Source of the DNA: Deltaproteobacteria bacterium | GTDB lineage: Bacteria > Desulfobacterota > Dissulfuribacteria > Dissulfuribacterales > QOAL01 | Direction of reading: 5' to 3' | NCBI GenBank assembly: GCA_015494395.1 | Contig: WGBG01000180.1 | Location: 10,329 to 74,328, forward strand | DNA length: 64,000 bases | Notes under the pieces: model-generated | Told to the model about the DNA's origin: nothing | What the model saw: only the letters and a program-made list of their open reading frames with translations | Databases searched by the model: none | Part shown: positions 18,241 to 57,596 of the stretch, piece after piece | Layout: each line of letters opens with the position of its first letter | Position numbering within the stretch: position 1 is the stretch's first letter | Translations under genes and position numbers: made by a program

Positions 18241-18353
18241 TTTATTTAACCCTCCAAGAAGTTAATATTAATGTATAATTATCTTATTATAAATCATAAT
18301 CTTTTTAAAATGAACTTAAAAATCATTCTTATAATTAAAATTCAAAGTAAATC

Positions 18354-28315: not shown

Positions 28316-29035
28316 TTATGGTTCCTCCCCGTCCAGACGAAACCTGTAGCCTACTCCTGAATGGGTGATGATCAGACGGGGGCTTGATGGGTTGTCTTCT
28401 ATCTTCTGGCGAAGCCTTCTTATGTGTACGTCAATTGCCCGGCTCCACGGGTAAACCTCCTTGTCTTTCCAGAGTCTGTTACACAACTCTTCACGTTTAA
28501 CTACCTTGTTACAGTTTTCTACAAGGGTCAGCAGCAGCTCGAACTCCTTACGGGTGAGATTCACATGCTCTCCCCTGGCAGTCACTGTCCTCTGTTCAGG
28601 ATAGATGGTTATGTCACCTGCCTTTATCACCTGTTCTGTACGGGTTGTCTTGTCCCTGCGCCTGATACACGCCTTTATGCGTGCTGCAAGTTCCAGGAAT
28701 TCAAAGGGCTTGGTCATGTAGTCGTCAGCCCCCAGGTCAAGCCCCCGTATCTTGTCAGCAAGGCTCTCCCGTGCACTGAGGATTATAATCGGGATGTCAG
28801 ACAGCTTCCTCAAATGCTGGCATATTATCAGGCCATCAATGTCTGGCAGGGTGAGATCAAGAATGACAAGGTCCGGCTTAAAACTATCAAAAGCCTCCAT
28901 AGCCTCCTTGCCGGTTGACACACCCTTTGCCTCATAACCGTCCAGTGCAAGCTGATCCACAAGGACCTTTTGAATGTCCTGATCGTCCTCAACCACAAGT
29001 ATTTTCATTCCTTCCCTAGGTTCTCCCTCAATCAT
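28316..29035 (-). CDS. OmpR-family response regulator
   Basis: Receiver domain (KILVVEDD..DLVILDLTLPD) plus a winged-helix output domain (GVGYRF). Start is ATG 29035 (GGGGGA 8 nt upstream) or ATG 29008. The 29134 extension is rejected. Confidence 0.9.
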   Translation of the reverse strand: MIEGEPREGMKILVVEDDQDIQKVLVDQLALDGYEAKGVSTGKEAMEAFDSFKPDLVILDLTLPDIDGLIICQHLRKLSDIPIIILSARESLADKIRGLDLGADDYMTKPFEFLELAARIKACIRRRDKTTRTEQVIKAGDITIYPEQRTVTARGEHVNLTRKEFELLLTLVENCNKVVKREELCNRLWKDKEVYPWSRAIDVHIRRLRQKIEDNPSSPRLIITHSGVGYRFRLDGEEP

Positions 29036-30700: not shown

Positions 30701-31050
30701 GTGGAAATAGCTCAAAGCTGAAAGCTCAAGGCTCAAAGTAAAAGAAGCCTATTTGCTTCCAGCTTCCGCTTTGGGTTAACTTTCATGTATCTATTCAGCG
30801 TGATAATTGGTCTTGTTTTGGAGTGACTTTGAAGAATTTCGTAGTTTTTCTTGGAGAAGCGCAGCCAGAAAATCGCGTCTGTCTGAGCGAGGCACGAGCG
30901 AGTTTCGCGATTTTGGCGTAGCGAGCCTTAGAAAAACAAGGAATTGTTCTCCGGAACGGAAAAACAAGACCAATTATCAACCTTATAATATCAATACGCT
31001 GAACAGTTACACTTTCATATCATGGGATGACAAACCCCATGTCATGAAAA
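30701..31050 (+). repeat. family C palindromic composite element (C1), interrupted by family A copy A2
   Basis: 30701..30786 matches the left ~90 bp of the intact copy at 49084..49205. 31011..31050 matches its right hairpin (..gatgacaaaccccatgtcatgaaa). Confidence 0.7.
30787..31010 (+). mobile_element. family A MITE, full length (A2)
   Basis: Canonical ends. Perfect 8-bp duplication ACTTTCAT (30779..30786 and 31011..31018), which is sequence belonging to family C. Confidence 0.9.
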
Positions 31051-31099: not shown

Positions 31100-31822
31100 A
31101 TGGCAGTGTTAAAGGCAGATGGCTTGGAAAAATCATACCGTGGCAGGCAGGTCGTAAAGGGGGTGAAGATTAAGATAAAAACCCGAGAGGTTGCAGGGCT
31201 CCTGGGCCCCAATGGAGCAGGCAAGACCACGGTATTTTATATGCTTGCCGGGATAATAAGGGCAGATGCAGGCAGTGTATCACTGAACGGAAAAGACATA
31301 ACAGCCCTGCCTCTTTCAGCCCGGGTTAAACATGGCCTGACCTACCTTCCCCAGGAGAGGTCTGTTTTTCAGGGACTCAGTGTGAAGAAGAATCTGTCTG
31401 CAGTCCTTGAGATGCTTGATATAAGCAAGGCTGAGATAGAAAGGAGAACTGAAAAGTATCTTGCCGAGTTTGATTTGGAACACGTGGAATCCTCTCTAGC
31501 GAGAGAGCTTTCAGGAGGTGAGGCAAGGCGGCTTGAGATTGCACGTGCCATTGCAGTTGAGCCTGATTTTTTGCTCATGGATGAGCCCTTTGCTGGGGTG
31601 GATCCAATGGCAGTCAGTATGATTCAGGACATAATCAGGAGGCTTAAAGGCCTTGGTATGGGGATTTTAATATCTGATCACAACGTAAAGGAAACACTCA
31701 AGGTCTGTGATCACGCGTTTATTATGAATGAAGGAGAAGTGCTGGTTTCAGGGGCTCCGGATGAGCTAGCAAAGAGTCCCGAGGCAAGGGCAGTTTATCT
31801 GGGGGAACGGTTCAGGCTGTAA
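31100..31822 (+). CDS. lptB: LPS export ABC transporter ATP-binding protein
   Basis: Walker A (GPNGAGKTT), signature LSGGEARRLEIARA, Walker B (FLLMDEPFAGVDP), and a length (240 aa) typical of LptB. Confidence 0.9.
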   Translation: MAVLKADGLEKSYRGRQVVKGVKIKIKTREVAGLLGPNGAGKTTVFYMLAGIIRADAGSVSLNGKDITALPLSARVKHGLTYLPQERSVFQGLSVKKNLSAVLEMLDISKAEIERRTEKYLAEFDLEHVESSLARELSGGEARRLEIARAIAVEPDFLLMDEPFAGVDPMAVSMIQDIIRRLKGLGMGILISDHNVKETLKVCDHAFIMNEGEVLVSGAPDELAKSPEARAVYLGERFRL

Positions 31823-31829
31823 AAAACAG

Positions 31830-31900
31830 GTATCTATGCACCGGGGCGGAAAAACAAGACCATTTACCAACCTTATAACACCCATACGCTGAACGGCTGC
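31830..31900 (+). mobile_element. family A MITE, internally deleted short form (A3)
   Basis: GTATCTA..ggcggAAAAACAAGACCATTTACCAACCTTATAA..ACGCTGAACGGCTGC. The flanks AAAAACAG / AAAAATAT match at 6 of 8. Confidence 0.6.
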
Positions 31901-31911
31901 AAAAATATACG

Positions 31912-33630
31912 TTATCGGGAAATCGGCTCAAGTACACCGTTATTCAGGATAAATGCCATGTCTGCTGCATCTATCATTCTGTCATGGTGTGATATGGCAA
32001 ATATGGTGAGGTCTCCGGCAAGGTTTTTCAAGGTCTCACATATCTCCTTTTCACTTGCGGGATCAAGGGCGCTTGTAGCCTCATCCAGAATTAGTATTTG
32101 TGGCCTGTGAATAAGCGCCCTGGCAATGGTAATACGCTGCCTCTGGCCACCTGAAAGCCTGCTTCCCCTTTCTCCTGTAACCGTATGGATGCCATCAGGA
32201 AGCCTTGAGACAAATTCCCATGCTCCTGCTCTCTTTAATGCATATTCTACATCGGCTTCAGTAAAGCTCTTGTCTCCAAGTGTTATGTTTACCATTATGC
32301 TGTCATGGAGCAGCATGGTTTCCTGCGCCACATAGCCGATCATCTTACGCCATTTTTTGATATCAAATTCGCTAAGTGAGGTGTGGTCAATCAGTATGTC
32401 ACCGCTTGATGGCACCATAAGCCCGCAGATCAGATCAGCCAGAGTCGTTTTGCCAACACCTGATGGCCCTGCCAGTGTGATAAACCTGCCCTTGGGAAAT
32501 GTTACACTGATGTTATTAAGAATGGATTTGCTGTCGTATGAAAAGCTTACATTGTGCAGACGAATTGCCTGCGTAAAAAACGGAAGTTTGGTTCCTTTCC
32601 ACTGCTCATACCATTTTTGAGCCTCCTGTATCCTGCTTTGCATGGACCAGTAGGCACTTTCGGCAATTACCATGGATTGATGTTGCCGCTGTGCCCTCTG
32701 AAGGGTCTTTAGAATCTTGTTAAGCATGTACACCATGACCAGGACGCTTGAAATAGAAAGATTGAAGGTTACCAGGGCAATGTACAGACCTGCTGAGAAA
32801 AATATGGTCATAAGTGGTTCCTGCATTGCCCTCAGTGCCTCCCGGCTGAATACCTGCATCCTTAACGCATGGTTTAAATTAAGTGTTTCCTGTTCAAGCA
32901 TTGTCTGGGTGGTCTGTTCCCTTGCCATTGCCTTCAGGGGCTTTATGGACTGAAGGGTGTCAGTCATTAGTGAAATCAGAGATTTAAGCTTGTCTGTCTG
33001 GTTTTTTCCTGCCTGTTTGGCCTTTATGACAAGCTGTTTCAGCAGGTAAAGAATTAATGATCCTACTACCAGTGCAAGGAGTGTGATACGCCAGGTCACC
33101 ATCATGGCAACTGATATATAGACAATGCAGTTTAAGAGCAGTGCAATTATCCTCATGCCAAAGAGGTAGGCGCTTGCAGAGCGTTGTGCCTCGGTTGCAA
33201 ATGAGTTTGTGAATGCACCGGCAGACTGATGTACAAAATATTCCCATCGGCTTGCAAATATGGCGCGTATCAGGTCAAGCCTCAGGTCTGTTGCAACCCT
33301 TGCAACCATGTATCCAACCTGTCTGTTGGCAATCAGAACCAGGCTGACTTTGATAATAATGCTCATTACAAAAAGGATGAGCAGAAGGCCAACTGTTGGG
33401 TGAATATGAAGGAACGCGAAAAGATTGCTTACTGCAATTTCCAGTGAGGAAGGGGAGTGGTTGGAGCCTGGCTGCTGCATGGCTGATCCGGAACTGTCAA
33501 AGGAAAGCGTGAGTAGCGGAAGGAGCATTGACATCCCAAAACCCTCGGCAATGCCGGCAAAGAGCATGGCAAAGAGGGTTACTACGCTTTGGGACGGATA
33601 GCGTTTCAGAAATGTGAGGACGAGATTCAT
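31912..33630 (-). CDS. ABC transporter, fused permease/ATPase (MsbA/lipid exporter-like)
   Basis: Six-TM N-terminal half, then Walker A (GPSGVGKTT), LSGGQRQR and ILILDEATSALD. Confidence 0.85.
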   Translation of the reverse strand: MNLVLTFLKRYPSQSVVTLFAMLFAGIAEGFGMSMLLPLLTLSFDSSGSAMQQPGSNHSPSSLEIAVSNLFAFLHIHPTVGLLLILFVMSIIIKVSLVLIANRQVGYMVARVATDLRLDLIRAIFASRWEYFVHQSAGAFTNSFATEAQRSASAYLFGMRIIALLLNCIVYISVAMMVTWRITLLALVVGSLILYLLKQLVIKAKQAGKNQTDKLKSLISLMTDTLQSIKPLKAMAREQTTQTMLEQETLNLNHALRMQVFSREALRAMQEPLMTIFFSAGLYIALVTFNLSISSVLVMVYMLNKILKTLQRAQRQHQSMVIAESAYWSMQSRIQEAQKWYEQWKGTKLPFFTQAIRLHNVSFSYDSKSILNNISVTFPKGRFITLAGPSGVGKTTLADLICGLMVPSSGDILIDHTSLSEFDIKKWRKMIGYVAQETMLLHDSIMVNITLGDKSFTEADVEYALKRAGAWEFVSRLPDGIHTVTGERGSRLSGGQRQRITIARALIHRPQILILDEATSALDPASEKEICETLKNLAGDLTIFAISHHDRMIDAADMAFILNNGVLEPISR

Positions 33631-33727
33631 TGTCCGGATCTGGCAAGGGGCTGCAACAATTTATATAGCCAGCTTTAAGAGAGGGTAATGAATGGAAATA
33701 ACCTTTATGCTGGCATTTAGAGCGGTG

Positions 33728-34906
33728 TTATTCAGAGGTAAGGGCTTCAAATGCATCACCAATGGTGGATACCTGCTCAGGTGTGTGAGATGCGCTCATA
33801 CTGCAGCGCAAAAATGCACTTCCATCTGGTGTGGCAGGTGGCAGTACCATGTTTACATAAACACCTTTAGCAAGCAGTCCCTTCCACACTCTCAAGGCTT
33901 CATGCGGATCAGTGAATCTTACAGGAATAATGGGAGTGGGTTCAGGGCCAAGGTTCAGCTTGAGTGAGGACAGCCTGTCATAGAGTGCATTTGTGTTTTG
34001 CCATAGCCTTGTTCTAAGCTCAGGACGTGTGGCGATTATCTCAAGTGCCTTTCTTGCAGATGCTATGTTGGAAGGGGAGGGGGAGGCAGTAAAAATATAT
34101 GGCCTGCTTGCGTAGCGCAGAATTTCAAGCTGCTGGTGGTTGCTTGAACAAAAGCCCCCGGTTGCACCAAGGCTCTTGCTGAACGTACCGGTGATAAAGT
34201 CAACCTTGTCTGAAACCCCTGCCTCTTCGGCAAGTCCCCTGCCATTTTCTCCCAATACTCCCAGTGAGTGTGCCTCATCTACCAGGAGATAAGCCCCGTA
34301 TTTTTCTTTCAGTTCAACTATTTCTCTTATGCATGCCCGATCCCCCAGCATGCTGTAAAGCCCTTCTATGATAATCAGAATGTTTGTTTTGCGTTTCTGC
34401 AGACGGGAGAGCCTTTTTTCAAGGTCTTCCATATTGTTGTGCTTGAAACGGAACATCTCAGCCCCGCCCATGCGGCAGCCGTCATATATGCTGGCATGAC
34501 AGTCAGCGTCAAGCAGAGCGATGTCGCCGGGGCCAGCCAGGGATGAGAGCACAGCCAGGTTTGCACCATATCCTGTGGTGAAAACGATCGTGTTTGAGCA
34601 GCCAAGAAAATTTGAAAGGGCCTCTTCAAGCTGGACATGACCTGAAAAAGTCCCGTTTGCCATGCGGGAACCAGTGGTTCCTGTACCGTTTTGTCTGGTT
34701 GCCTGGCACGCTGCCTCTATGCATTCAGGGTCCATTGAAAGGCCCAGGTAGTTGTTGGTTCCGGCCAGAATTACCTTTTTGCCATTTATAACAGCCTCGG
34801 TGCTGGACAGGATTTCATCCATTACCACCTGAAAGAAGGCGCCAAATTCCTGTTCAAGTTTCTGGCCTGCCTGGACAAGTTTGTCAAATTTGTCAAAGAT
34901 GTTCAT
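33728..34906 (-). CDS. spt: serine palmitoyltransferase-like alpha-oxoamine synthase
   Basis: Blocks closely resemble bacterial Spt as I recall it: GSRMANGTF, DADCHASIYDGC, EGLYSMLGD, LVDEAHSLG, GTFSKSLGATGGF (PLP Lys), RPYIFTAS, YVNMVLPPATP, FLRCSMSASHT. Confidence 0.8.
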   Translation of the reverse strand: MNIFDKFDKLVQAGQKLEQEFGAFFQVVMDEILSSTEAVINGKKVILAGTNNYLGLSMDPECIEAACQATRQNGTGTTGSRMANGTFSGHVQLEEALSNFLGCSNTIVFTTGYGANLAVLSSLAGPGDIALLDADCHASIYDGCRMGGAEMFRFKHNNMEDLEKRLSRLQKRKTNILIIIEGLYSMLGDRACIREIVELKEKYGAYLLVDEAHSLGVLGENGRGLAEEAGVSDKVDFITGTFSKSLGATGGFCSSNHQQLEILRYASRPYIFTASPSPSNIASARKALEIIATRPELRTRLWQNTNALYDRLSSLKLNLGPEPTPIIPVRFTDPHEALRVWKGLLAKGVYVNMVLPPATPDGSAFLRCSMSASHTPEQVSTIGDAFEALTSE

Positions 34907-34919
34907 TGAGATGGATATG

Positions 34920-35159
34920 TCAGATAAGTTTTTTTATTTGCGTAGCAAGATCTTCCACTGTGCGAACTTCAGCAAGTACATTTATGGGGATGGAGATGTC
35001 AAAGGTATCCTCAATCTGGGCAAGGATCTCCATGGATTTCAAGGAATCAATTGAGAGATCTGTAGCCAAATCTGTTTCAGGGGTAATCTCCGTATCTTCA
35101 GGCACCATTGGTTTGAGTATTTGGATGATTTTTCCAAGAACTTCCCTTTCCTCTCCCAT
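34920..35159 (-). CDS. acyl carrier protein
   Basis: 79 aa and acidic, with the phosphopantetheine attachment motif LSIDSLKSMEI. Confidence 0.8.
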   Translation of the reverse strand: MGEEREVLGKIIQILKPMVPEDTEITPETDLATDLSIDSLKSMEILAQIEDTFDISIPINVLAEVRTVEDLATQIKKLI

Positions 35160-35211
35160 GAGACCAACACCTTTCTGTAGAATTTGAAACTCTGTTCATT
35201 CCAGGTTTATT

Positions 35212-36150
35212 TCACGCTGCTAAAAGTTCCCTCAGCCCCTTCTTCAAACTTATAACAGGAGACCAATGATAATCCTGGGAAATAGGGCCGTTCTCAGCGG
35301 TCCAGTCAGGATGTAAAAGCTCATTTGCCTTGCCTAGAGTCAGCATTGGAGCATTTCCTGTTATTCTTGAAACACAAATATTAACCAATCCAAGAAACTT
35401 TACAATAGTTGCAGGTATTTTAATCCTGTTTATTTTTTTGCCTGTGATTATTGAGACTGTATCAATAATATCATGCCATGTATATCCCCCCTCCATTCCA
35501 TCGTGGATCTCATAAATCCCTGCATCCCTTGCAATCCCTGTTTTTATGACGGTTTTGATGGCATTTGCAAGGTCATGGACATTTATCAATGACAGTCTCT
35601 GGGTTGTGCTGCCAATTACCGGACAAATGCCCATGGCCATGACCTTGAAAAGCGGCAAAAGTTCCCTGTCACCAGGTCCGTACACAGCAGTTGGACGGAG
35701 TATAACCAGCTTTTCAGGGTAATATTTTTTAATTAAAGCAATTTCTCCAGCTCTTTTGCTTGCGGCATAATGAGACAGGTGAGGTTCCCGTGCTGCAAGT
35801 GATGAGATATGTATTAATATGGGAGGCTTTTGGCACCTGGAGCAGATTTCTGCAATGGTTGATGTGCCATGCACGTTGACTGCCTCAAAATCTTTTAAGG
35901 CACGCCCTCTAACTGTGCCGGCACAGTGGACAACAGCATCAGCACCGGCTACCAGTTTTTCAATGCTATCGATGTCATTGAGATCGCCAGTTATCCAGGT
36001 GAGATTTTTTCTTTGAGGAAGGACCCTGTTTTTTTTCTTTCTTGTCAGGGCATTGATGTGCCAGCCCGATTCCCAAAGCACTTTTAGCAAAGCAGAACCA
36101 ATGAAGCCTGTTGCACCTGTGACAGCTACACGGGGAAAATGGTCATTCAT
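35212..36150 (-). CDS. NAD(P)-dependent epimerase/dehydratase-family reductase (CerR-like candidate)
   Basis: Extended-SDR fold with VAVTGATGFIGSAL. It lies between the FAAL and acp genes, as in bacterial ceramide clusters. Confidence 0.75.
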   Translation of the reverse strand: MNDHFPRVAVTGATGFIGSALLKVLWESGWHINALTRKKKNRVLPQRKNLTWITGDLNDIDSIEKLVAGADAVVHCAGTVRGRALKDFEAVNVHGTSTIAEICSRCQKPPILIHISSLAAREPHLSHYAASKRAGEIALIKKYYPEKLVILRPTAVYGPGDRELLPLFKVMAMGICPVIGSTTQRLSLINVHDLANAIKTVIKTGIARDAGIYEIHDGMEGGYTWHDIIDTVSIITGKKINRIKIPATIVKFLGLVNICVSRITGNAPMLTLGKANELLHPDWTAENGPISQDYHWSPVISLKKGLRELLAA

Positions 36151-36187
36151 TGGGGATGGGGCTTAATCTGGTACGGGCACAAAGGTA

Positions 36188-37924
36188 TCAGGCAGCTGCT
36201 TTCTCACCGTTCATTGCAAGATAGACCTTGCGACTTCCGCTGCGGCTGGGTTTCCCTGACGTGGTTCGTACCAGTGTATTCTTGGGGACAATTTCAACAA
36301 TGCATTCAATTCCTAACTCCTGGCGCACCAGACGTTTTAGCTCTTCTACCCGGCGCGCCTTTTCAGCAACATCGGTTATCTTGCTTTGTACCAGCAGGAC
36401 CGCCTCCTCAAGGCCGTTACTGTCAGTGCATGAGAAGGCACAGGCGTCTCCAGCCCGTATTCCGTCAATGCTTTCAGCAAGGTATTCGATGTCCTGTGGC
36501 CATATATTCCTGCCGTTTATTATGATAAGGTCTTTTGAACGGCCTGTAATAACTATCTCTCCATCTGACCAGTAGGCCATGTCACCGGTATTAAGCCACC
36601 CGTTTTTTGAGAGCACTTCTGCTGTTGCCTCAGCATCTGCAAAATATCCGGTCATTATGCTTGGTCCCCTGAGAAAAAGGGTGCCGCATTTACCTTCTGA
36701 AAGAATTTTTCCTTCTGCGTCTCTGATTTCAACCTCAAAGGTTGGCAGGGGCCTTCCACATCTGACAAAGGTATTTGCCCTTACTGCCTCATGTTGTTCA
36801 TCATTTTCGTTCAGGTAAACAACATCATTGGTCTCTGCAAGTCGTTCTGCATCTATTGTGTCCGTGGTTATTCCGGAATTTACAGGGGCAAAGGTAACGG
36901 CCAGGGAACATTCAGCCATGCCATAACACGGTATGAATGCCTTTGGACTGAAACCGGCAGGCTTCAGACATTTTGCAAATTTGTCCAGAGACTGTTTTCT
37001 TATCATCTCCGCTCCTATGCCGGCAATGCGCCAGGAACTCAGATCAAGACCTTCTATTTCATGGGGCTTGAGGCGCATGGCTGAAAGCTCGTATGAAAAT
37101 GGCGGTCCAAATGATATGGATGCCCTGTTGTCTGATATTAGCTTAAGCCACAGGCGAGGACGCATTACAAAATCTATTGTGCTGAAAAAATCCACAGAGA
37201 GCTGGCTTGCCATGCTTGCCAGCAGGAGTCCAACAAGGCCCATATCGTGGTAAAAGGGAAGCCATGATACTGCTCTGTCACCCTCCCTGACCTTGATTCC
37301 TGGCCCGGCTATTGCAGACAAGTTGTTCATCACTGCTGCCTGTGTAATCATCACTCCCTTTGGGAAGCGTGTGCTGCCGGATGTAAACTGCAGATATGCC
37401 AGTTCGTGCGGTTCCAGCGGGTGAAGTTTTTGGGTTGAGGTCGGGAGAGCATGAAAATCTTCTGGCGGACCTGTCATCTTCATGCCCAGGCCATCGGATG
37501 CCTTTAGCAGAAAGTCAAGGAAGTCGGGTGTGGATACTGCAATATCAGCCCCGCAAATGGTAAGAAGTCTTCTTAATTGGCCAATGTATGCCTCTGATCC
37601 GTTCAGATGAGTTCCTAATGGAAGAGGTACTGGAATAAGTCCTGCATACTGGCAGGCAAAGAAAAAACGCACGAACTCAGGGTGGGTTGTAGCAACCAGT
37701 GCGACCCGGGAGTTTCTTTCAAGGTCAAGGGAGAGCAGACGGGATGCCAGCTCCATTGCCTCAGCTTTGAGCCTGCTGTAGGGCAGCACATCATACAGTT
37801 CACCCCTGCGTGAGTAAAAATTAAAGCCCGTTTCTCCTGTTGCTGCATAATCCAGTGCAAGGGCAAGGGTATCGAAAGTTCCGGTTTTAAGGGGGACTGT
37901 ATTGAGTGTAGGGGTAGGATCCAT
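36188..37924 (-). CDS. fatty acyl-AMP ligase / acyl-ACP synthetase-like adenylating enzyme
   Basis: AMP-binding motifs (YLQFTSGSTRFPKGV, TGD..Y). FAAL-like architecture. Confidence 0.85.
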   Translation of the reverse strand: MDPTPTLNTVPLKTGTFDTLALALDYAATGETGFNFYSRRGELYDVLPYSRLKAEAMELASRLLSLDLERNSRVALVATTHPEFVRFFFACQYAGLIPVPLPLGTHLNGSEAYIGQLRRLLTICGADIAVSTPDFLDFLLKASDGLGMKMTGPPEDFHALPTSTQKLHPLEPHELAYLQFTSGSTRFPKGVMITQAAVMNNLSAIAGPGIKVREGDRAVSWLPFYHDMGLVGLLLASMASQLSVDFFSTIDFVMRPRLWLKLISDNRASISFGPPFSYELSAMRLKPHEIEGLDLSSWRIAGIGAEMIRKQSLDKFAKCLKPAGFSPKAFIPCYGMAECSLAVTFAPVNSGITTDTIDAERLAETNDVVYLNENDEQHEAVRANTFVRCGRPLPTFEVEIRDAEGKILSEGKCGTLFLRGPSIMTGYFADAEATAEVLSKNGWLNTGDMAYWSDGEIVITGRSKDLIIINGRNIWPQDIEYLAESIDGIRAGDACAFSCTDSNGLEEAVLLVQSKITDVAEKARRVEELKRLVRQELGIECIVEIVPKNTLVRTTSGKPSRSGSRKVYLAMNGEKAAA

Positions 37925-38113
37925 TTATATTTAAAAAAAATGCCATTATTTAAGCAAAACGATTACAGACACATCGCTTAATTGGGCATATGCTTGGCTA
38001 TTTGGTTATATTTGTAAAAAAAAGGAAAAACACAGGTAATATAGCGGCGGTAAACATAACATCACCTTTTCAATGAATCAACTGTGAAAAGGGTAAGGAG
38101 TGGAGAAATCGGG

Positions 38114-38989
38114 ATGCTTTTATCAGGCAATACAGGTTATCGAAAAGTTTTTCTGGCAGTTTTTGTAGCCATATTCATACAGCTTTCTTCGTGCCCGTGC
38201 GTTGCTGACGACGGCCAAATGCGCTCGTGTCAGGAATTGCCCGTTTTGATTTTTGAGGCTACAAGGACAGGGGTGCATCTCTCTGTAACTGTTGAGCCTC
38301 TGGCACCCGGCAAATCACTTTTCAGTAACATGGCCGGTTTTTCAGATGTTTTGTTTGAGTCAGATTTAATTACTCCTCAAATCAGGAGATTGCCAGCGAT
38401 ATATATAAAACGGGTTCTGGAAGGGTTCCTTGTGCCTGATATGGTATCAGAACGTATTGTGTGGTTTGTGCCTGAGACTATGGAGGCTGTGTCGCGGCTC
38501 CGCTGGAAAAGTAACCGTCCTGAAGTATTGAAGGTGTACAGATGGGAAGAGGGAGGGGTAAGAAGATGGAAGATTAAGAAAGACCCCAAGACCGGGAATG
38601 TGGTAAGGGTTAAGGAAGAATTTTATGATTTTATCAAACAGAAAGAGACGTGCAGCAGGGTTTCTGACCCTGCCCTTCTTCCTTATATGGTATCCCTCTG
38701 TGGAGTAAGTGCGGGTAATAAATTTGAGCCTTCCATCTGTGTCTTTGGCAAGAAGGCCCTGCATCAGGTTAGTCTGAAGTGTGTTGAAAATAATAAAAAG
38801 CACTGTGTAATCAGTCTGTCTCAGAGAAAAACAGTTGGTTCATCTGAACACTTTTCCATGCTTGGACTTGAAGACGATATCTTGATACAGGTAGATGAAA
38901 CCTCCAGGCTGCCGGTAATTATCAAGGGAAATAATGCCGTTGCCGGTGATGTTACGCTTAGGCTTACGCAGGTATCCTGGCAGAAGTAA
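38114..38989 (+). CDS. hypothetical secreted protein
   Basis: From ATG 38114 (GGAG upstream) the N-terminus MLLSGNTGYRKVFLAVFVAIFIQLSSCPCVA looks like a signal peptide. I recognise no family. Confidence 0.45.
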   Translation: MLLSGNTGYRKVFLAVFVAIFIQLSSCPCVADDGQMRSCQELPVLIFEATRTGVHLSVTVEPLAPGKSLFSNMAGFSDVLFESDLITPQIRRLPAIYIKRVLEGFLVPDMVSERIVWFVPETMEAVSRLRWKSNRPEVLKVYRWEEGGVRRWKIKKDPKTGNVVRVKEEFYDFIKQKETCSRVSDPALLPYMVSLCGVSAGNKFEPSICVFGKKALHQVSLKCVENNKKHCVISLSQRKTVGSSEHFSMLGLEDDILIQVDETSRLPVIIKGNNAVAGDVTLRLTQVSWQK

Positions 38990-39001
38990 GCTGTATCACG
39001 C

Positions 39002-39220
39002 GTAACTGTTCAGCGTACTTAAAAGGTTGGTAAATGCCCTTGTTTTCCGTTCCAGAGAACAATTTCTTGTTTTTCTAAGGCTTGCTTAAGCCAAAATCGC
39101 GAAACTCGCTCGTGCCTCCCTCAGACATACGCGATTTTATGGCTGCGCTTCGCCAAGAAAAACTACGAAATTGTTCAAAGTCACTCCAAAATAAGACCAT
39201 TTACCACGCAGAATAGATAC
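39002..39220 (-). mobile_element. family A MITE, full length (A4)
   Basis: Reverse orientation: GTAACTGTTCAGCG..GGTAAATGCCCTTGTTTT...AAAATAAGACCATTTACCACGCAGAATAGATAC. The flanking 8-mers match at only 5 of 8. Confidence 0.8.
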
Positions 39221-39228
39221 CATCATAC

Positions 39229-40035
39229 TTAAGTTTTTTCAGAACAGCGCCTGGAAATTTCGTCCACCATCTCAAGGTCAGCAGGTGTATCCACGTCAAC
39301 TGCAGCCTCTGGCCAGGGCATTATAACAACATCTGCCCTGCATCCAAGGCATGACGATATGCGCTTAAGCCCCTCTTTCAAGGTGAGTATTCCAAAAATA
39401 TATTTAAATGCTGCAAGCCATCCAAAGGAGTTCACCACGTAAAGCGGTTTTTTGCGTTTTGCCTCAACACTTTGCCAGAATTGTGCAGCATTACCAGCTT
39501 TGGGCGTAAGGAATCCGAAGAGATTACAGGAGCAGAAACCGCCGTCCTTTAGTTTGTACACAGTGCGCCGGGTCCTTGGAAATGCCTGGTTGACTTTATC
39601 AGCTCTTGCAAGGGCTGCTGTTACATCACATCCTTTCGCAGCAGATGTGTTACAGAAGTAGTCAATCATTTCAGGGGTTATTAATGCGTGGTCTCCTGTT
39701 GTTACAAGTACAGGCCGGTTGGGATCGCTGTTTTCGGAAAGGTGTTTCATGGCCTGCCATGCACTGCTGCTGGGGGAGATTCCCGGTTCAATCCAGTCAA
39801 TGTTTTCTTGTGCGCAGAGCTTTCCCAAAACATCTGATTTTTCAAATGTGGATCTTTTGGGGCCGCATATAATAATGTTTTCAACAGATTCTGCCTTATC
39901 AAGTGCGGCTGTGACCCTGCTTATCATAGGTACCCCGTTAACAGGTGCCAGGACTTTGCACTCCACTCCTGCTGTCCTTGCAACCGGGTTCTCTGCTTCT
40001 CTGTCTCCTGCCAGTATAATTGCTGAAAATTTCAT
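39229..40035 (-). CDS. MobA-like nucleotidyltransferase family protein
   Basis: N-terminus MKFSAIILAGDRE..KVLAPVNGVPMI is typical of NTP_transf_3 / MobA-like enzymes. Confidence 0.6.
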   Translation of the reverse strand: MKFSAIILAGDREAENPVARTAGVECKVLAPVNGVPMISRVTAALDKAESVENIIICGPKRSTFEKSDVLGKLCAQENIDWIEPGISPSSSAWQAMKHLSENSDPNRPVLVTTGDHALITPEMIDYFCNTSAAKGCDVTAALARADKVNQAFPRTRRTVYKLKDGGFCSCNLFGFLTPKAGNAAQFWQSVEAKRKKPLYVVNSFGWLAAFKYIFGILTLKEGLKRISSCLGCRADVVIMPWPEAAVDVDTPADLEMVDEISRRCSEKT

Positions 40036-40051
40036 GCTGTTAAGCCTGAAT

Positions 40052-41200
40052 TTATGATATCCGTTTTCCGTAAATCCTGTACCGCTTGTACTCCCTTCCC
40101 CCCAGGGATTCTATTATCCTCCTCATGATTGTGTTATCTTCCAGTATCCATGACAGCTCAAGACTCTTTATGCCAAGCTCTCTTACCGCAATGCTTATAT
40201 CACTAAAGAGGTTGTAGGCAAGGGCAGCACCGGTAAGGGTGTCTCTGTATTTCTTTATAACTCCCATGAGAAGAACGCGCCCTGTAGAAGGATGCCTCAC
40301 CTTTAACCTCCAAAGCAGTTTAAGCCACCCGAAGGGCAGCAGCCTTCCATTGAGGTCACAGATGGCTTCATTGATGTTTGGAAGCACCACGATAAATGCA
40401 GCAGGTTCATCATCTATCTCTGCTATTCTTACAAGCCGGTTGTCAGCGATAAATTTCATGGTCTGGCCTATTTCCAGATACTCTTCCCTGGTAAACGGCA
40501 CAAATCCCCAGTTTTCAGACCATGCATCATTGAAAATGCCAAAGATTATATCCATCTCACCGGCAAGTTGTGATCTGTCAATTCCTCTTGTCCGCATGCC
40601 TGTTGCGGTTTTTTCAAGAATACGTGTGATTGCCGGAGGCTGTTCCTGGTCAGTGTCCATTGTGTAGGCAAGAAGGTCCTTTTCTTTTTCATAGCCGCAT
40701 GCTTCAACTGCCTGGGGGTACCACGGTTTTGTATGGGCCATCATCATGGATGGCGGTGTGTCAAAGCCTTCTACAAGCATACCGCACTCCTGATTTATGG
40801 AGAGATTAAACGGTCCCATGACCTTGGTCATTCCCATGTTTTTTAACCAGTCTTCCGCAGTTTTAAGAAGCATGCCCACTGTTTCATCGTTCTTTTCAGC
40901 CTCCAGCATGCCAAAAAAACCTGTGTTTTCACCATAACGGTGGATATAAAGCTCGTCAATTTGAGCACTTATGCGTCCAACAGGCCTTCCTTTCCTGTAG
41001 GCTACCCAGAATTTACATTTGGCATGTCTGAAATATGGATTTTCAGGAGATAGGTGTATTCTCCGCTCTAATTCAAGGGGAGGTATCCACGTGGGATCGT
41101 CCCTGTAAACAGAGTATTGGAGCCTGATAAAATCTGAAAGCAGCCTGGATTTACGTAGATTTGTAATGGGGTTTATTTGCAGGGTTGAGGAGGCTGACAT
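40052..41200 (-). CDS. large GNAT-like acyltransferase of unknown specificity
   Basis: 382 aa. The central and C-terminal regions have an acyl-CoA N-acyltransferase-like pattern (..WVAYRKGRPVGRISAQ.., GFFGMLEA..). The assignment is weak. Confidence 0.45.
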   Translation of the reverse strand: MSASSTLQINPITNLRKSRLLSDFIRLQYSVYRDDPTWIPPLELERRIHLSPENPYFRHAKCKFWVAYRKGRPVGRISAQIDELYIHRYGENTGFFGMLEAEKNDETVGMLLKTAEDWLKNMGMTKVMGPFNLSINQECGMLVEGFDTPPSMMMAHTKPWYPQAVEACGYEKEKDLLAYTMDTDQEQPPAITRILEKTATGMRTRGIDRSQLAGEMDIIFGIFNDAWSENWGFVPFTREEYLEIGQTMKFIADNRLVRIAEIDDEPAAFIVVLPNINEAICDLNGRLLPFGWLKLLWRLKVRHPSTGRVLLMGVIKKYRDTLTGAALAYNLFSDISIAVRELGIKSLELSWILEDNTIMRRIIESLGGREYKRYRIYGKRIS

Positions 41201-41249
41201 GGTTGTTTTAAGGATTCCTGCTTGTTGCTCAATTCGGGAAAAGTTTAAA

Positions 41250-41457
41250 CCTGGATTGAGCGATTGCCGGATTTGCTACAGATCCGCGAAAGGGGAATTC
41301 CCATAATAGTTGGCTATATGGGAATTCCCCTGACAAAGGAGATGCAGTAAATACGGCAATCCCGAAGGGTTTCAAAATTGGGAAGCTATTATTGACATAA
41401 CTCTTTTTAATATCGGTGAAAAAACAATTTTCCATATTTTGAAACGCTCAATCTAGG
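41250..41457 (+). mobile_element. family B MITE, long variant (B3)
   Basis: TIR is CCTGGATTGAGCG / CGCTCAATCTAGG. 5-bp duplication TTAAA (41245..41249 and 41458..41462). It carries ~70 extra bp, including the hairpin GGGGAATTCCCA-N15-TGGGAATTCCCC (41292..41330). Confidence 0.8.
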
Positions 41458-41468
41458 TTAAAAATGCC

Positions 41469-41547
41469 TTAACTGTTAAGCGTACTAATAATAAAGGTTG
41501 GTAAATGGTCTTGTTTTTACGCTCCGGTTACCACGCTGAATAGATAC
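41469..41547 (-). mobile_element. family A MITE, short hairpin form (A5)
   Basis: ttAACTGTTAAGCG..GGTAAATGGTCTTGTTTTT..CCACGCTGAATAGATAC. The 8-bp flanks AAAATGCC / AAAATACC match at 7 of 8. Confidence 0.7.
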
Positions 41548-41734
41548 AAAATACCAAATGTTACCGGTGGAGTGGACATGCGATAAAAAACAATATATAG
41601 ATTGTGACCGGATTTGCATGGATAGTGAATGCCCTGGCATGGTGATGACAAGCATTAACGTCAACTGTGACCATGAAACCGGCTATGCTAATGTTTAGGT
41701 GAATACAACCATAAAACCGTAGTGGAGTAAACTT

Positions 41735-42502
41735 TTGAAGGCAATAATATTAAGCGCAGGGCAGGGGAAACGCCTTTTGCCCATGACTGCTGACATGCCC
41801 AAGTGTATGCTTGATGTTGGCAGTGGTACTATTCTTGAGTGGCAGATCAATACGCTTCTTGGTATGGGCGTTAATGAAATAGTAATCGTCACCGGTTACG
41901 GGGCATCCAAGGTGGACAGGCTGATATCAGAAACCTATGCTGATAATGGAGTAAGGACTCTTTATAATCCTCATTATGCCACTTCTGACAACCTTGTGAG
42001 CTGCTGGTGGGCAAGCAGTGAGATGGATAAGGATTTCTTGCTGCTTAATGGAGACACGCTGTTTGAGCCTGCTGTGGCCAGTACCCTTATGAACTGTCCG
42101 CCTTCTTCAATAACCATGGCAATAAATGTCAAGGATAACTATGACAGCGATGACATGAAGGTTGTGGTTGATAAGGGGCGGCTTTTACATGTTGGCAAGC
42201 AGCTGCCGGTTGAAAGTGTTGACGGGGAATCAATTGGTTTTATCCGTTTTCTGGGAGAGGGGCCAGATATTTTCAAAAAGGCACTTGCCGAAGCTGTTGA
42301 GAACCCTTCGAGTAAAGGAAGATGGTACCTGTCTGTAATTGACAAGATTGCAGGAGAAATGCCAATAAGTACATGTCCAATCACCGGTTATTCATGGTGT
42401 GAAGTGGATTATCCTGAGGACCTTGATAATGCACGCAGGATGATTGCATCGCTTTCTGTTGCCAAAAAAACTGAGGGCAAGGGCATTTGCCAACCTTATT
42501 AA
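41735..42502 (+). CDS. NTP-transferase domain protein (LicC/IPCT-like cytidylyltransferase candidate)
   Basis: TTG start with GGAG 8 nt upstream. N-terminus is (M)KAIILSAGQGKRLLPMT. The last codons and the stop lie in a family A end fragment. Confidence 0.7.
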   Translation: MKAIILSAGQGKRLLPMTADMPKCMLDVGSGTILEWQINTLLGMGVNEIVIVTGYGASKVDRLISETYADNGVRTLYNPHYATSDNLVSCWWASSEMDKDFLLLNGDTLFEPAVASTLMNCPPSSITMAINVKDNYDSDDMKVVVDKGRLLHVGKQLPVESVDGESIGFIRFLGEGPDIFKKALAEAVENPSSKGRWYLSVIDKIAGEMPISTCPITGYSWCEVDYPEDLDNARRMIASLSVAKKTEGKGICQPY

Positions 42503-42524
42503 GGTGAATGCGCTTAACAGTTAC
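42478..42524 (+). repeat. solo right-end fragment of family A (A11)
   Basis: caagggcatttgccaaccttattaaggtgaatgcgcttaacagttac aligns to the right ends of A2, A3 and A5 (caagaccatttaccaacctt..acgct(g/t)aacagtta). Confidence 0.6.
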
Positions 42525-42681
42525 ATAATTTCTTCTTTATCAATGTTAGTACTTTTCCACGGTAATATTACCCTATCCTGACTTTAGACTTCGCCGGCTC
42601 AGCCTGATATCCGCTAAGCAAAAGACCGGCATCAGTCCGGCATTTTTTCTGAGTATTAGCCTGGCTGCCCATTATAGCGTT

Positions 42682-43746
42682 ATGATTCTTGAACGATATC
42701 TCATCAGGGAGATTGTCAGGCCTGCTGTTGCAACATGTGGTCTGCTGGTATTTATGTTCGGCTGTTACATGGCAACAAGATACTGGGCTGATGCGGCGCA
42801 GGGGGAGCTGCCAGGCTTTACGGTCATGGTCCTTATCCTGCTTCGCGTGGTAATTGCCCTGGAGGTCCTTATTCCCACCACGCTGTTCCTTTCAGTGGTA
42901 ATAGCTCTTAACCGGCTCTACAGAAACTCAGAGATTACAGCCCTTGCCGCCTGTGGCATAGGTCCCGGGCGGATCTTTAAGTCAGTTGCAATTGCCTCAG
43001 CCCTGGCAGCAGCTTTGGTTGCCATTCTATCATTATATATAAGACCCTGGGCCTGGAACCAGTTTTTCACACTAAAGACAGAGGAGAGAGCAAGGTTTGA
43101 TCTTACCCGCATGAAAGGCGGAATCTTTTATGAGATATGGCACGGCAATAGGGTTATGTTTGCCCAGAGTGTGGATCTGCATAACAAAACCGCCAGTAAC
43201 GTATTTATCTATACGAATAAGGATGATGAAAGGGAACTGATCTCAGCCAGCAGTGCCAAACAGTATGCTGGCCCTGATGGAAGGCCGTACCTCATGCTGT
43301 TAAATGGCTGCCAATATGAGTATGCTTATGATGGCAGCCGCTCCATGATGATTGAGTTTGAACGTTCCAGGATGATTCTTGAACCGCCGGTCATAGAGAA
43401 GGAGGACAAGATAAAGGCAGTTCCCCTGCTGCACCTCTTGGGCGGCTCTTCACTTGAAGAAATTGCCGAACTGCAGTGGCGGTTTATAACCCCGCTGTCA
43501 ACCCTGCTCCTTGCCCTCCTTGGTGTGCCGCTTGGGGTTTCAACCCCCAGGCAGACAAAGTCAGCGTCTGTTCCGGTGGCAATTACTGTTTTTGCTCTCT
43601 ACTATCTTTTGGCAGCTCTTCTGAAAAAGTGGGTTGCACAGGGCCAAATACCTTCTGTCCCCGGAATTTGGTGGAGCCAGGTTTTTCTTGTGGTGCTGTT
43701 GGCGCTGTTTCTTAAAAAGACCGGGATGTTCGGTGCTCGTACATGA
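42682..43746 (+). CDS. lptF: LPS export ABC transporter permease
   Basis: YjgP/YjgQ-family N-terminus (MILERYLIREI), 6 TM helices and a periplasmic domain. It is followed by its paralog with an ATGA overlap. Confidence 0.8.
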   Translation: MILERYLIREIVRPAVATCGLLVFMFGCYMATRYWADAAQGELPGFTVMVLILLRVVIALEVLIPTTLFLSVVIALNRLYRNSEITALAACGIGPGRIFKSVAIASALAAALVAILSLYIRPWAWNQFFTLKTEERARFDLTRMKGGIFYEIWHGNRVMFAQSVDLHNKTASNVFIYTNKDDERELISASSAKQYAGPDGRPYLMLLNGCQYEYAYDGSRSMMIEFERSRMILEPPVIEKEDKIKAVPLLHLLGGSSLEEIAELQWRFITPLSTLLLALLGVPLGVSTPRQTKSASVPVAITVFALYYLLAALLKKWVAQGQIPSVPGIWWSQVFLVVLLALFLKKTGMFGART

Positions 43747-44807
43747 AAACCCTGGACCTTTACATAGCAGGATTCTTTTTTAAGGCATTTATTGCAGTGC
43801 TTGCTGTGCCAGGTGTGCTCTTCAGCTTTTTTGAGCTCATGGCCCAGCTTGAGAGTGTAGGGTGCGGCAGTTACACCAATTTCCATGCGTTACTCTACGT
43901 GCTTTATACACTGCCCGGTCGTCTTTCAGACCTTGTTCCAATGGTTGTGCTTCTTGCAGGCATAATTTCACTTGGTGCCCTGTCAGACAGGCATGAACTT
44001 GTGGCAATGCAGGCATCAGGAATGTCTGTTTTAAGAATCAGTATGCCGGTAATGAGTATGTGTCTTGTAATTATGCTCATCTCTTCGCTTGCAGGGGAAA
44101 CAATGATTCCATACCTTGAGAAGAAGGCGCGTAATATGCGTTTCCAGAAGCTTTCAGGAAGGGCAGTGACACCTGTAAGTCATGGTTTCTGGGCAAGATT
44201 CAAGGGTTCTATTATCCACGTGGAAAATGTAGTAAATGATGGCACAGTAAGCGGTATAGAGATATTTGAGTTTACAAGGCCCGGGAAGTTAAGCAGGGTT
44301 ATCAGGGCGCAGAGTGCTGAGATACTGAAGGACAGATGGGTCCTGCACAACGTCACAGGCACCAGCATGATGACCATGAAAAAACACCAGGTCCCGGAGA
44401 TTACCCTGGGGGATTTTCTGAATCCTGAGCAGGTAAGTGCCCTGGAGTTGCCCCCCTCAAGTTTCACAATCCCTGAGCTTATGGGATATATTGACGCCCT
44501 TGAAAAGAGTGGACAGAATCCGGATCATTACTCAATGGCACTGTGGCGCAAACTTGCCAATCCCCTCACCACTGCAGCAATGGCCCTTCTGTCTTTATCA
44601 TTTGTCTTTGGCTCTGTGCGTGAAATTGGAGCAGGGTTCAGGATTGTTGCCGGGGCATTTGCAGGGCTTGCGCTCCACTTTGGGCAGCAGCTTGTGATAA
44701 ACATAGGGACATATCTTGCACTTCCGCCATTTCTGTCAGTGATGATCCCGGTTGTAATTGTCTGGGGGCTGGCAGGGATTACCTGGAGGAATTTAAGGGT
44801 TGGATAA
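43743..44807 (+). CDS. lptG: LPS export ABC transporter permease
   Basis: YjgP/YjgQ family (LDLYIAGFFFKAF..). Same size and architecture as the preceding gene. Confidence 0.8.
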   Translation: MKTLDLYIAGFFFKAFIAVLAVPGVLFSFFELMAQLESVGCGSYTNFHALLYVLYTLPGRLSDLVPMVVLLAGIISLGALSDRHELVAMQASGMSVLRISMPVMSMCLVIMLISSLAGETMIPYLEKKARNMRFQKLSGRAVTPVSHGFWARFKGSIIHVENVVNDGTVSGIEIFEFTRPGKLSRVIRAQSAEILKDRWVLHNVTGTSMMTMKKHQVPEITLGDFLNPEQVSALELPPSSFTIPELMGYIDALEKSGQNPDHYSMALWRKLANPLTTAAMALLSLSFVFGSVREIGAGFRIVAGAFAGLALHFGQQLVINIGTYLALPPFLSVMIPVVIVWGLAGITWRNLRVG

Positions 44808-52797: not shown

Positions 52798-53022
52798 ACT
52801 TTCGTGGTAGGGGCGCTGTCACTCCCCTGATATGAAAGTTAGCTCTAAGCTCAAAGTCGGAAGCTGAAAGCAGACAGGGTTTTTTTTGTAACTGTTCAGC
52901 GCATTTATTCAACGAGGTTGGTAAATGGTCTTGTTTTTCCGTTCCCAGGACCATTTACCACGCTATATAGATACGTTTTTTTACTTTGAGCCTTGAGCTT
53001 TCAGCTTTGAGCTATTTTAGGA
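52797..53022 (-). repeat. family C palindromic composite element (C3), interrupted by family A short copy A6
   Basis: 52797..52887 and 52975..53022 together align to the reverse complement of C2. The element begins at the HIT stop codon. Confidence 0.7.
52888..52974 (-). mobile_element. family A MITE, short hairpin form (A6)
   Basis: GTAACTGTTCAGCG..GGTAAATGGTCTTGTTTTTCCGTTCCCAGGACCATTTACCACGCTATATAGATAC. It is flanked by G+T-run repeats (gtttttttt / gttttttt), consistent with an 8-bp duplication. Confidence 0.75.
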
Positions 53023-57565: not shown

Positions 57566-57596
57566 TGAGCCTGCGGTTGGTTTCCTTTATTATTTA

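Follow-up and report, generated by a model that had tools for sequence, protein, structure and literature searches.

A probable sphingolipid synthesis-and-export locus with an embedded lptB gene and a candidate ABC flippase in a Desulfobacterota genome

Introduction

The closest described systems to the locus analysed here, a 13.7-kb gene island at positions 31100-44807 of a 64-kb stretch of contig WGBG01000180.1 from an uncultured Desulfobacterota bacterium (the whole stretch is hereafter the window), are the bacterial sphingolipid loci typified by that of Caulobacter crescentus (CC_1152-CC_1168 / CCNA_01210-01226; Stankeviciute 2022; Olea-Ozuna 2021, 2024; Zik 2022; Uchendu 2024, 2026). This 17-gene region contains aasR, cerR, acpR, spt, the bacterial ceramide synthase gene bCerS (CC_1154), CC_1153, CC_1152 and genes for a ceramide kinase, a Tam41-like protein, a CDP-alcohol transferase and a phosphoesterase, together with second copies of lptC, lptF and lptG and a Wzx-like flippase candidate (PMC11324152). 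Orthologues have been reported in Nitrosomonas eutropha (Neut_1100-1106, Neut_0458-0461 and Neut_0267-0268), Azotobacter vinelandii and Pseudomonas luteola (PMC11324152).

In Caulobacter, Spt and bCerS are cytoplasmic and CerR is periplasmic, and no flippase for the pathway has been identified (Uchendu 2024, PMC11087976). The CofC-like protein CC_1153 and CC_1152 are both needed for the conversion of ceramide phosphoglycerate (CPG) to CPG2, the second head-group step (PMC11324152). Export of the sphingolipid requires LptF2 and LptG2, which associate in a complex and bind the only LptB of the cell; together with LptC2, they can be deleted only when the anionic sphingolipid is not made (Uchendu, Isom, Klein 2026, bioRxiv 10.64898/2026.04.12.717747). 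The same study reports that the sphingolipid locus contains no lptB homologue and that lptC2 appears to be restricted to Caulobacter. Outside the Alphaproteobacteria, the LptF and LptG proteins encoded in these loci are weakly similar to CC_1156 and CC_1155, with E-values of 1e-6 to 1e-15 in N. eutropha, A. vinelandii and P. luteola (PMC11324152).

Ceramide synthesis genes and the putative ceramide synthase

An open reading frame (ORF) map and family scans of the window agreed in placing every gene listed in a previous sequence-only reading where that reading had put it. The island is probably a locus for the synthesis and export of a sphingolipid, of the Caulobacter/Rhodobacteria type. Its ceramide module (Spt, AcpR, AasR and CerR) is complete and forms a single strand-consistent block (33728-37924) between the gene for an ATP-binding cassette (ABC) half-transporter and that for a nucleotidyltransferase, NT1. 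Both the serine palmitoyltransferase Spt (33728-34906, minus strand; NF047599, 590 bits against a cut-off of 500) and the AasR-like fatty acyl-AMP ligase (FAAL) or acyl-ACP synthetase (36188-37924, minus strand; NF006624, 751.8 bits against a cut-off of 600) pass the cut-offs of their families. Between them lie genes for a dedicated, AcpR-like acyl carrier protein (ACP) of 79 aa, which matches ACP models and carries the DSL phosphopantetheine site within LSIDSL (34920-35159, minus strand), and for a CerR-like NAD(P)-dependent reductase of the short-chain dehydrogenase/reductase type (35212-36150, minus strand; PF01370 Epimerase, E=4.6e-27). The position of acpR matches that of CC_1163/Neut_0460, and cerR and aasR are syntenic with CC_1164/Neut_0459 and CC_1165/Neut_0458, respectively. 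On the minus strand the genes run in the order aasR, cerR, acp, spt and ABC, with intergenic gaps of 14-98 bp.

The remaining enzyme of ceramide synthesis would be a 382-aa tandem GNAT N-acyltransferase (40052-41200, minus strand), which matches PF00583 weakly (E=4.5e-5) and which the sequence-only reading had put forward as a candidate ceramide synthase. The candidacy is borne out by homology and context. The protein shares 47-51% identity over residues 2-381 with Nitrosomonas and Nitrosospira proteins whose genes are followed by NT1, lptF, lptG, CDP-alcohol transferase, diacylglycerol (DAG) kinase-like and Tam41-like genes, the arrangement of Neut_1100-1106. Neut_1100 is in turn an orthologue of the Caulobacter bCerS CC_1154 (41% identity, 100% coverage, E=5e-105; Olea-Ozuna 2024, PMC11324152, S2 Table). 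The window GNAT protein is also 49% identical to Escherichia coli YghO, encoded next to FAAL-epimerase-ACP-spt-lptG-lptF; E. coli genomes with spt are a minority in that species. The family comprises at least 8000 members with 56-93% identity to the query, most of them, among the matches listed, at 56-60%, and one source names a member as 'hypothetical protein associated with serine palmitoyltransferase'. A sequence search of the PDB returned no relative with a solved structure. The AlphaFold2 (AF2) model (pLDDT 74) is a tandem GNAT, and its best Foldseek matches were the glucosamine N-acetyltransferase 5kf1, the tandem GNATs 7q3a and 2wpw, and the mycothiol synthase MshD (TM-scores of ~0.58/0.69). 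The data hence indicate that this protein is a predicted bCerS, which by homology would N-acylate 3-ketosphinganine or sphinganine.

Following homology and the published genetics, AasR would load a fatty acid onto the dedicated AcpR, Spt would condense the AcpR-bound fatty acid with serine, the tandem-GNAT bCerS would add the N-acyl chain, and CerR would reduce the 3-oxo group to yield dihydroceramide. The ABC half-transporter, in a predicted operon with spt, may then flip the lipid across the inner membrane, while NT1 and a second nucleotidyltransferase, NT2, may contribute to the synthesis of a CPG2-like anionic phospho head group. With energy supplied by the adjacent LptB, LptF-LptG could extract the finished lipid from the inner membrane and pass it to the Lpt bridge toward the outer membrane. 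The transport roles of the ABC protein and of lptB are putative. The core idea is not new, since these roles have been published for Caulobacter (Olea-Ozuna 2024; Uchendu 2026) and extended by homology to Nitrosomonas, and the core annotation of bCerS, the nucleotidyltransferases and lptFG is confirmatory. New with respect to the published loci are the ABC exporter gene that ends the spt operon, the locus-embedded lptB, and a secreted protein that matches nothing in Pfam or the PDB.

Conservation of the gene neighbourhood

A GNAT-anchored scan of 185,579 species genomes yielded 80 loci, analysed with flanks of up to 10 kb, from the Desulfobacterota, Nitrospirota, Beta- and Gammaproteobacteria, Acidobacteriota, Gemmatimonadota and Methylomirabilota. 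NT1 lies directly downstream of the GNAT gene in 64/80 of these loci; lptF is present in 51/80, FAAL in 46/80 and spt in 32-33/80. The co-occurrence analysis that the sequence-only reading had proposed therefore finds the partners of the GNAT gene co-conserved with spt. In the 43 loci with full 10-kb flanks, NT1 was found within 10 kb of the GNAT gene in 35, DAG-kinase-like and Tam41-like genes in 31 each, lptF in 30, lptG in 29, FAAL in 27, the CDP-alcohol transferase gene in 26, cerR in 25, spt in 24, NT2 in 20 and the phosphoesterase gene in 18. The ABC exporter gene (11/43), lptB (3/43) and lptC (2/43) were less frequent at this distance.

The nearest syntenic relatives of the locus are metagenome-assembled genomes (MAGs) of Desulfobulbaceae-like bacteria. 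An origin in Nitrosomonas, to which the best-scoring Spt model, the 'betaproteobacterial' one, had pointed, was rejected, as the Nitrosomonas GNAT proteins share only ~50% identity and the exact synteny is with these MAGs. Two of them (loci L003 and L039) present a gene order identical to that of the window, with the addition of lptC upstream of lptB and of phosphoesterase, CDP-alcohol transferase, kinase and Tam41-like genes beyond lptG. A closer relative in terms of identity (L085, 67-87%) keeps the whole neighbourhood, from uvrD, epimerase, glmS, response regulator and histidine kinase genes through lptB and ABC to NT2. In four other relatives (L090 6780-9126, L092 6734-9095, L095 7713-10038 and L101 10696-13043), an unannotated gene encoding 377-401 aa and a GT4 glycosyltransferase gene, both absent from the window, sit between lptB and spt (or the ABC gene); this pair suggests that those lineages make glycosylated sphingolipids.

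Comparison with the described systems outlines a shared core with variable edges. The Caulobacter locus shares with the window the ceramide module, bCerS followed by a CofC-like nucleotidyltransferase, a second nucleotidyltransferase, and lptF and lptG. Unlike the window locus, it contains no lptB, the sole LptB of the cell being used instead, and its flippase candidate is the Wzx/MOP-type CC_1166 rather than an ABC exporter. It also holds lptC2 and the kinase, Tam41-like, CDP-alcohol transferase and phosphoesterase genes, all absent from the window. The split loci of N. eutropha C91 and the contiguous clusters of A. vinelandii and P. luteola present the same bCerS-NT1-lptF-lptG block and the same spt operon. 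In Nitrosomonas these two units are separated, whereas in the window they are contiguous, and the homologues of CC_1159-1161 that follow lptG in Nitrosomonas are missing here. Neither lptB nor the ABC exporter gene formed part of the published comparison of the Nitrosomonas, Azotobacter and P. luteola loci.

As in the window, bCerS, FAAL-epimerase-ACP-spt and accessory lptF-lptG genes are found in the E. coli yghO-spt locus (e.g. NZ_CP031215.1) and on plasmid pBYT5-2 of Pseudomonas sp. BYT-5. Both loci differ from the window in having no lptB, and in E. coli and the pBYT5-2 host the locus lptFG is certainly a second copy. The plasmid additionally carries an ABC gene directly downstream of spt, NT1, NT2 and kinase, phosphoesterase and CDP-alcohol transferase genes, while in E. 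coli a Wzx-like 'lipopolysaccharide biosynthesis protein' takes the place of the ABC exporter. The plasmid locus (L103, pBYT5-2 93984-123099), which also includes genes for an ELM1/GtrOC1-type glycosyltransferase and an aspartyl beta-hydroxylase, is a complete sphingolipid locus that adjoins an IS481 transposase gene on a conjugative MOBP plasmid, and constitutes direct evidence of horizontal movement.

The recurrence of this gene neighbourhood in many unrelated genomes is more than would be expected by chance, and bears on the possibility that the island is a chance juxtaposition, brought about by rearrangement through miniature inverted-repeat transposable elements (MITEs), of an spt operon and lpt genes that have no functional link. 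MITE-like repeats do occur in four intergenic regions of the island, and the window has lost the lptC and CPG-type head-group genes that relatives keep at the island edges. We nonetheless regard such a juxtaposition as highly improbable, because the same partners, variously ordered, recur near the GNAT gene in dozens of genomes spanning several phyla, and because single operons in relatives mix lptF, lptG and lptB with head-group genes.

Head-group genes

The sequence-only reading had suggested that two nucleotidyltransferases of the island could activate a head group, which fits the Caulobacter genetics, as their homologues are needed for the second head-group step (PMC11324152). NT1 (39229-40035, minus strand), a MobA/CofC-like protein with a PF12804 domain and a weak CofC C-terminal match, is encoded 17 bp downstream of bCerS and is the counterpart of CC_1153, with the same position and domain as CC_1153/Neut_1101. 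NT2 (41735-42502, plus strand; PF00483/PF12804), of the sugar-phosphate/phosphocholine type, has the Pfam domains of CC_1152 and is its counterpart; in relatives it is usually found in the arrangement NT2-lptF-lptG, a block that in the window is 535 bp away from bCerS.

The other head-group genes (ceramide kinase, Tam41-like, CDP-alcohol transferase and phosphoesterase) are carried by the syntenic relatives (L002, L003, L005, L007, L008 and L039), and in this genome they may be encoded elsewhere. As the window has neither these four genes nor the lptC found in syntenic relatives, the locus has been trimmed at both ends in this lineage, and the repeats described below are plausible agents of that trimming. 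At the edge of one Desulfobulbaceae sphingolipid locus, a gene with a sulfotransferase domain adjoins the Tam41-like gene (L003 421-1284, plus strand); this gene may be relevant to sulfonated ceramides, which have been reported from Black Sea water rich in Desulfobacterota (PMC11334938).

lptB, lptF and lptG

Three genes of the island encode proteins of the families that make up the lipopolysaccharide (LPS) extractor. The product of lptB (31100-31822, plus strand), the ATPase of the LptB2FG lipid extractor, scores 324.5 bits against TIGR04406 (cut-off 240), and those of the lptF-type (42682-43746, plus strand) and lptG-type (43743-44807, plus strand) permease genes, in which the start of lptG overlaps the end of lptF by 4 bp, score 301 bits against TIGR04407 (cut-off 230) and 327 bits against TIGR04408 (cut-off 240). 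As in canonical LptB2FGC, the three proteins match their models over the full length and the ATPase motifs are intact. LptB aligns full-length with its Klebsiella pneumoniae and E. coli counterparts (262 bits, ~52% identity), preserves the Walker A, Q-loop, LSGGE, Walker B, H-loop and C-terminal VYLGExFRL motifs, and is accordingly predicted to be a bona fide LptB. Its gene is monocistronic and convergent with the spt operon. Profile and tblastn searches detected no LptC, LptA or RpoN in the 64-kb window, so that lptB stands alone, as had been noted from the sequence. The canonical kdsD-kdsC-lptC-lptA-lptB-rpoN and pepA contexts are replaced here by sphingolipid genes, and the pepA-lptF-lptG arrangement, present in L104, L105 and L107, is likewise not seen in the window.

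The genomic context of 11 of the best LptB homologues was then considered. Eight of these contexts, including the window itself and L085, are sphingolipid loci. In L088 and L089 (LptB 62-63% identical), lptC and lptB have overlapping reading frames and are convergent with ABC-spt-acp; in L090 and L092 (57-59%), the lptC-lptB pair adjoins a gene without annotation and GT4 glycosyltransferase, ABC and spt genes; and in the Thermodesulfatator-like L095/L096 and in L101 (55-57%), lptB closes an operon with the order NT2-lptF-lptG-CDP-alcohol transferase-kinase-Tam41-like-lptB. The remaining three (L094, L097 and L099; 55-59%) are canonical, with the order kdsB-pyrG-kdsA-kdsD-kdsC-lptC-lptA-lptB-rpoN-hpf-ptsN. 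The association of lptB with sphingolipid genes in three arrangements (as lptC-lptB convergent with ABC-spt, at the end of an NT2-lptF-lptG operon, and alone) argues for a functional tie. Locus-embedded lptB is absent from the descriptions in PMC11324152 and 10.64898/2026.04.12.717747. The lptA-like signals near the GNAT gene are weak: marginal matches were obtained in L044 and L048, and in L055, a Lysobacterales MAG, a canonical-looking lptC-lptA-lptB (2668-4550) lies ~6 kb from the GNAT gene, with lptF-lptG and the head-group genes on the opposite side.

These observations must be set against the possibility that lptB, lptF and lptG constitute a single housekeeping LPS exporter, whose position here would reflect either a clustering of envelope-lipid genes or the use of one Lpt machine for LPS and the sphingolipid alike, with no dedicated transporter for the latter. 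We regard this as a substantial possibility, although somewhat short of an even one. It draws on the intact motifs of LptB and its identity to the enterobacterial proteins, and on the passing of the LPS-exporter equivalog cut-offs by all three proteins. These cut-offs do not discriminate, as PGAP gives the accessory lptF and lptG of the E. coli and pBYT5-2 loci the same names as the canonical genes; passing them hence does not separate LPS-dedicated from sphingolipid-locus copies, and they were rejected as proof of a housekeeping Lpt set. A neighbour-joining (NJ) tree of the 120 best LptB matches fits species phylogeny as well as paralogy, and locus-linked LptB and LptC proteins are as close to the canonical lptCAB-rpoN proteins of Desulfuromonadia-like genomes as to each other. 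At the level of gene organization, no sphingolipid-locus lptC-lptB pair is accompanied by lptA, and rpoN and kdsC/D are also absent beside the pair in the relatives, unlike in the canonical operon of L094, L097 and L099. Precedent for a single machine is found in the Bacteroidetes and Myxococcus, which make sphingolipids with one lptFG, and in Sphingomonas, which has only a locus-linked lptFG pair (10.64898/2026.04.12.717747).

The permeases provide evidence of a different kind. In a tblastn search of an E. coli chromosome, the window LptF matched only the copy located 6 kb from yghO (144 bits) and not the canonical gene; canonical Klebsiella LptF scored 71 bits. NJ trees were inferred from 23 locus-linked LptF/LptG pairs and four pepA-linked canonical pairs (Klebsiella, P. 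aeruginosa, Legionella and Ralstonia). The split between canonical and locus-linked sequences was recovered in 196/200 bootstraps for LptF and 144/200 for LptG, with canonical sequences that are proteobacterial only, none being from the phylum of the window. The window LptF falls outside the pepA-linked clade, in a locus-linked group that includes the accessory copies of E. coli and the Pseudomonas plasmid. Within the limits of a proteobacterial canonical control, the trees suggest that the window LptF/LptG pair is of the sphingolipid-locus type; the grouping of LptF weighs against a purely housekeeping set.

A stronger version of the sphingolipid-export reading would hold that Desulfobacterota-type loci encode a full second machine for lipid export at the inner membrane that serves sphingolipids alone, made up of an ABCB-type flippase, an LptB paralogue of their own (with an LptC paralogue in relatives) driving LptF2G2 and possibly a LolA/EipB-like periplasmic helper, whereas Caulobacter shares the LptB of LPS export. 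We advance this version tentatively, as it seems to us rather unlikely in its entirety. Should the locus lptB be a paralogue, sphingolipids would have an inner-membrane Lpt complex entirely of their own; were it instead the sole copy, a single Lpt machine would handle both lipid classes, with its genes grouped among those for the sphingolipid.

The ABC half-transporter

The terminal gene of the spt operon (31912-33630, minus strand) encodes an ABC half-transporter with the type IV exporter fold, combining a transmembrane domain (TMD; PF00664) and a nucleotide-binding domain (NBD; PF00005). It shares this TMD-NBD architecture with PglK, MsbA and the phosphatidylcholine translocator ABCB4. Its initial description as MsbA-like holds for the superfamily and architecture, but not for the MsbA equivalog, since the protein scores 240 bits against TIGR02203 (cut-off 602) and 191 bits against NF008381 (cut-off 867). 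Its best full-length bacterial relatives in the PDB are PglK (6e-55), a lipid-linked-oligosaccharide flippase, Sav1866 and MsbA (3e-44); despite this full-length similarity to PglK and MsbA, it remains below every equivalog cut-off, that of PglK included.

Evidence on function comes from genomic association. The ABC gene closes the spt operon not only in Desulfobacterota but also in Betaproteobacteria, in Nitrospirota and on a Pseudomonas plasmid, at 43-76% identity. On the conjugative plasmid pBYT5-2, the order FAAL-epimerase-ACP-spt-ABC is that of the window and the ABC protein is 43% identical. A homologue lies at most 4 kb from spt in 18/45 spt loci, and in 3/45 a Wzx-like protein of the kind found in Caulobacter and E. 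coli replaces it; none of the 45 loci has both. By this association with spt, the ABC half-transporter is a reasonable candidate for an inner-membrane sphingolipid flippase. A full-text literature search found no paper tying an ABC transporter to a bacterial spt operon, beyond mention of LptB2FGC, and the published comparisons did not pick up the ABC gene because they queried Caulobacter genes only (PMC11324152).

It is also conceivable, though in our view unlikely, that the protein has another export substrate, for instance a peptide, a drug or, like HepA, a polysaccharide, its gene being just a frequent neighbour of spt. The HepA family is its best NCBIfam match, even if at 303 bits it falls far under the cut-off of 725. 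The gene is absent from the vicinity of spt in more than half of the 45 loci, and L101 carries a different ABC exporter, only 31% identical and in another position. Against this reading stand the recurrence of the gene at the end of the spt operon across distant lineages, the lack of any locus in which it co-occurs with the Wzx-like flippase candidate, and the presence of the lipid flippases PglK and MsbA among the nearest bacterial proteins of solved structure. The ABC exporter and the locus lptB (with lptC in relatives) represent concrete candidates, open to experiment, for two unassigned steps in the export of bacterial sphingolipids.

Evidence weighing on the assignment of the locus

That the island would make, decorate and export a sphingolipid, as had been proposed from its sequence, is supported by homology and by the Caulobacter LptF2/G2 genetics as regards synthesis and export; decoration is covered in part, since the window contains neither the kinase nor the transferases of head-group synthesis. 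Several observations weigh against the assignment as a whole. Searches by tblastn with Nitrosospira and Desulfobulbaceae queries detected no homologue of the ceramide kinase, Tam41-like, CDP-alcohol transferase or metallophosphoesterase genes in the 64-kb window, so that the decoration pathway is incomplete locally. LptC is missing from the window too, and lptB, lptF and lptG, which all exceed the NCBIfam thresholds for the LPS exporter, could be the only Lpt set of the cell. In an admittedly crude tree, locus-linked LptB sequences do not form a single clade apart from canonical lptCAB-rpoN proteins, and locus-linked LptC sequences are no closer to one another than to canonical LptC. The ABC protein matches no characterised lipid-flippase equivalog and is adjacent to spt in only ~40% of spt loci. 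The GNAT protein, finally, is connected to the Caulobacter enzyme through intermediates and a published table.

A secreted protein encoded between NT1 and aasR

An ORF of 301 aa (38084-38989, plus strand), belonging to no named family, encodes a putative secreted protein whose probable start is the ATG at 38114, giving a product of 291-301 aa. Its signal peptide contains a lipobox-like LSSC that is not conserved in L003. Sequence searches returned no Pfam, NCBIfam or PDB match, and a word-indexed homologue search recovered only its own cluster; the family has 124 cluster representatives in a library of 1.8 billion proteins. The AF2 model (pLDDT 85.8) is all-beta, and Foldseek reported weak matches to EipB/DUF1849 (TM-scores of 0.41/0.48) and, lower, to LolA. 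Among the examined loci, the family was found only between NT1, at the end of the bCerS-NT1 operon, and aasR, in L003, L013, L021 and L085. A periplasmic lipid-handling role for this protein would be a guess; it is a further candidate offered by the locus.

Repeat elements

The repeats that the sequence-only reading had described as punctuating the island are real, and correspond to MITE-like elements with terminal inverted repeats, in two families. The first is an intergenic element of ~180-230 bp with terminal inverted repeats TGGTAAATGGTCTTGTTTT / AAAACAAGACCATTTACCA and at least 10 copies in the window. Within or bordering the island, copies occupy positions 30776-31011 (upstream of lptB), 31822-31901 (partial), 39025-39206 and 41496-41536, and thus four of its intergenic regions; the others are located at 18343-18552, 52916-52956, 55336-55538, 57586-57822, 58858-59061 and 61979-62140. 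Direct-repeat families D1-D8 were also found. The repeat elements had no Rfam match.

The second family has 22-nt terminal inverted repeats TTTAAACCTGGATTGAGCGATT and two copies, one between bCerS and NT2 (41244-41463) and one upstream of an AAA_22 ATPase gene in a polysaccharide cluster (13458-13756), whose cores share 89% identity across 125 nt. This family may represent either a MITE or a regulatory element common to the two sites. The MITE-like repeats would be passive intergenic insertions with respect to the pathway, and probably mark the rearrangements that split the locus relative to its relatives.

Flanking regions

A promoter and terminator scan of the island yielded counts near the level of shuffled sequences, and Rfam and tRNA scans of the whole window returned no match. 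The upstream flank carries histidine kinase, response regulator, glmS and uvrD-like genes, and the downstream flank chemoreceptor and cheW genes, all unrelated to the island; positions 47-64 kb contain housekeeping genes. The OmpR-type response regulator and histidine kinase genes (28316-30620, minus strand) are located directly upstream of lptB and divergent from it. The same pair is kept in L085 (7562-9873) with 72-80% identity, where the kinase has a Tll0287-like sensor domain, and it may regulate the locus.

At the other end of the upstream region, positions 100-20805 hold an exopolysaccharide-type cluster. It encodes GT4 glycosyltransferases, a DegT aminotransferase, a radical SAM protein and a NeuB fusion, together with Wzz/GNVR, Poly_export and BBP2 porin proteins, a 731-aa tetratricopeptide repeat (TPR) protein, the AAA_22 ATPase mentioned above and a dockerin-domain protein. 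The cluster contains no lpt genes, and its presence indicates that the envelope theme of this stretch reaches beyond the island.

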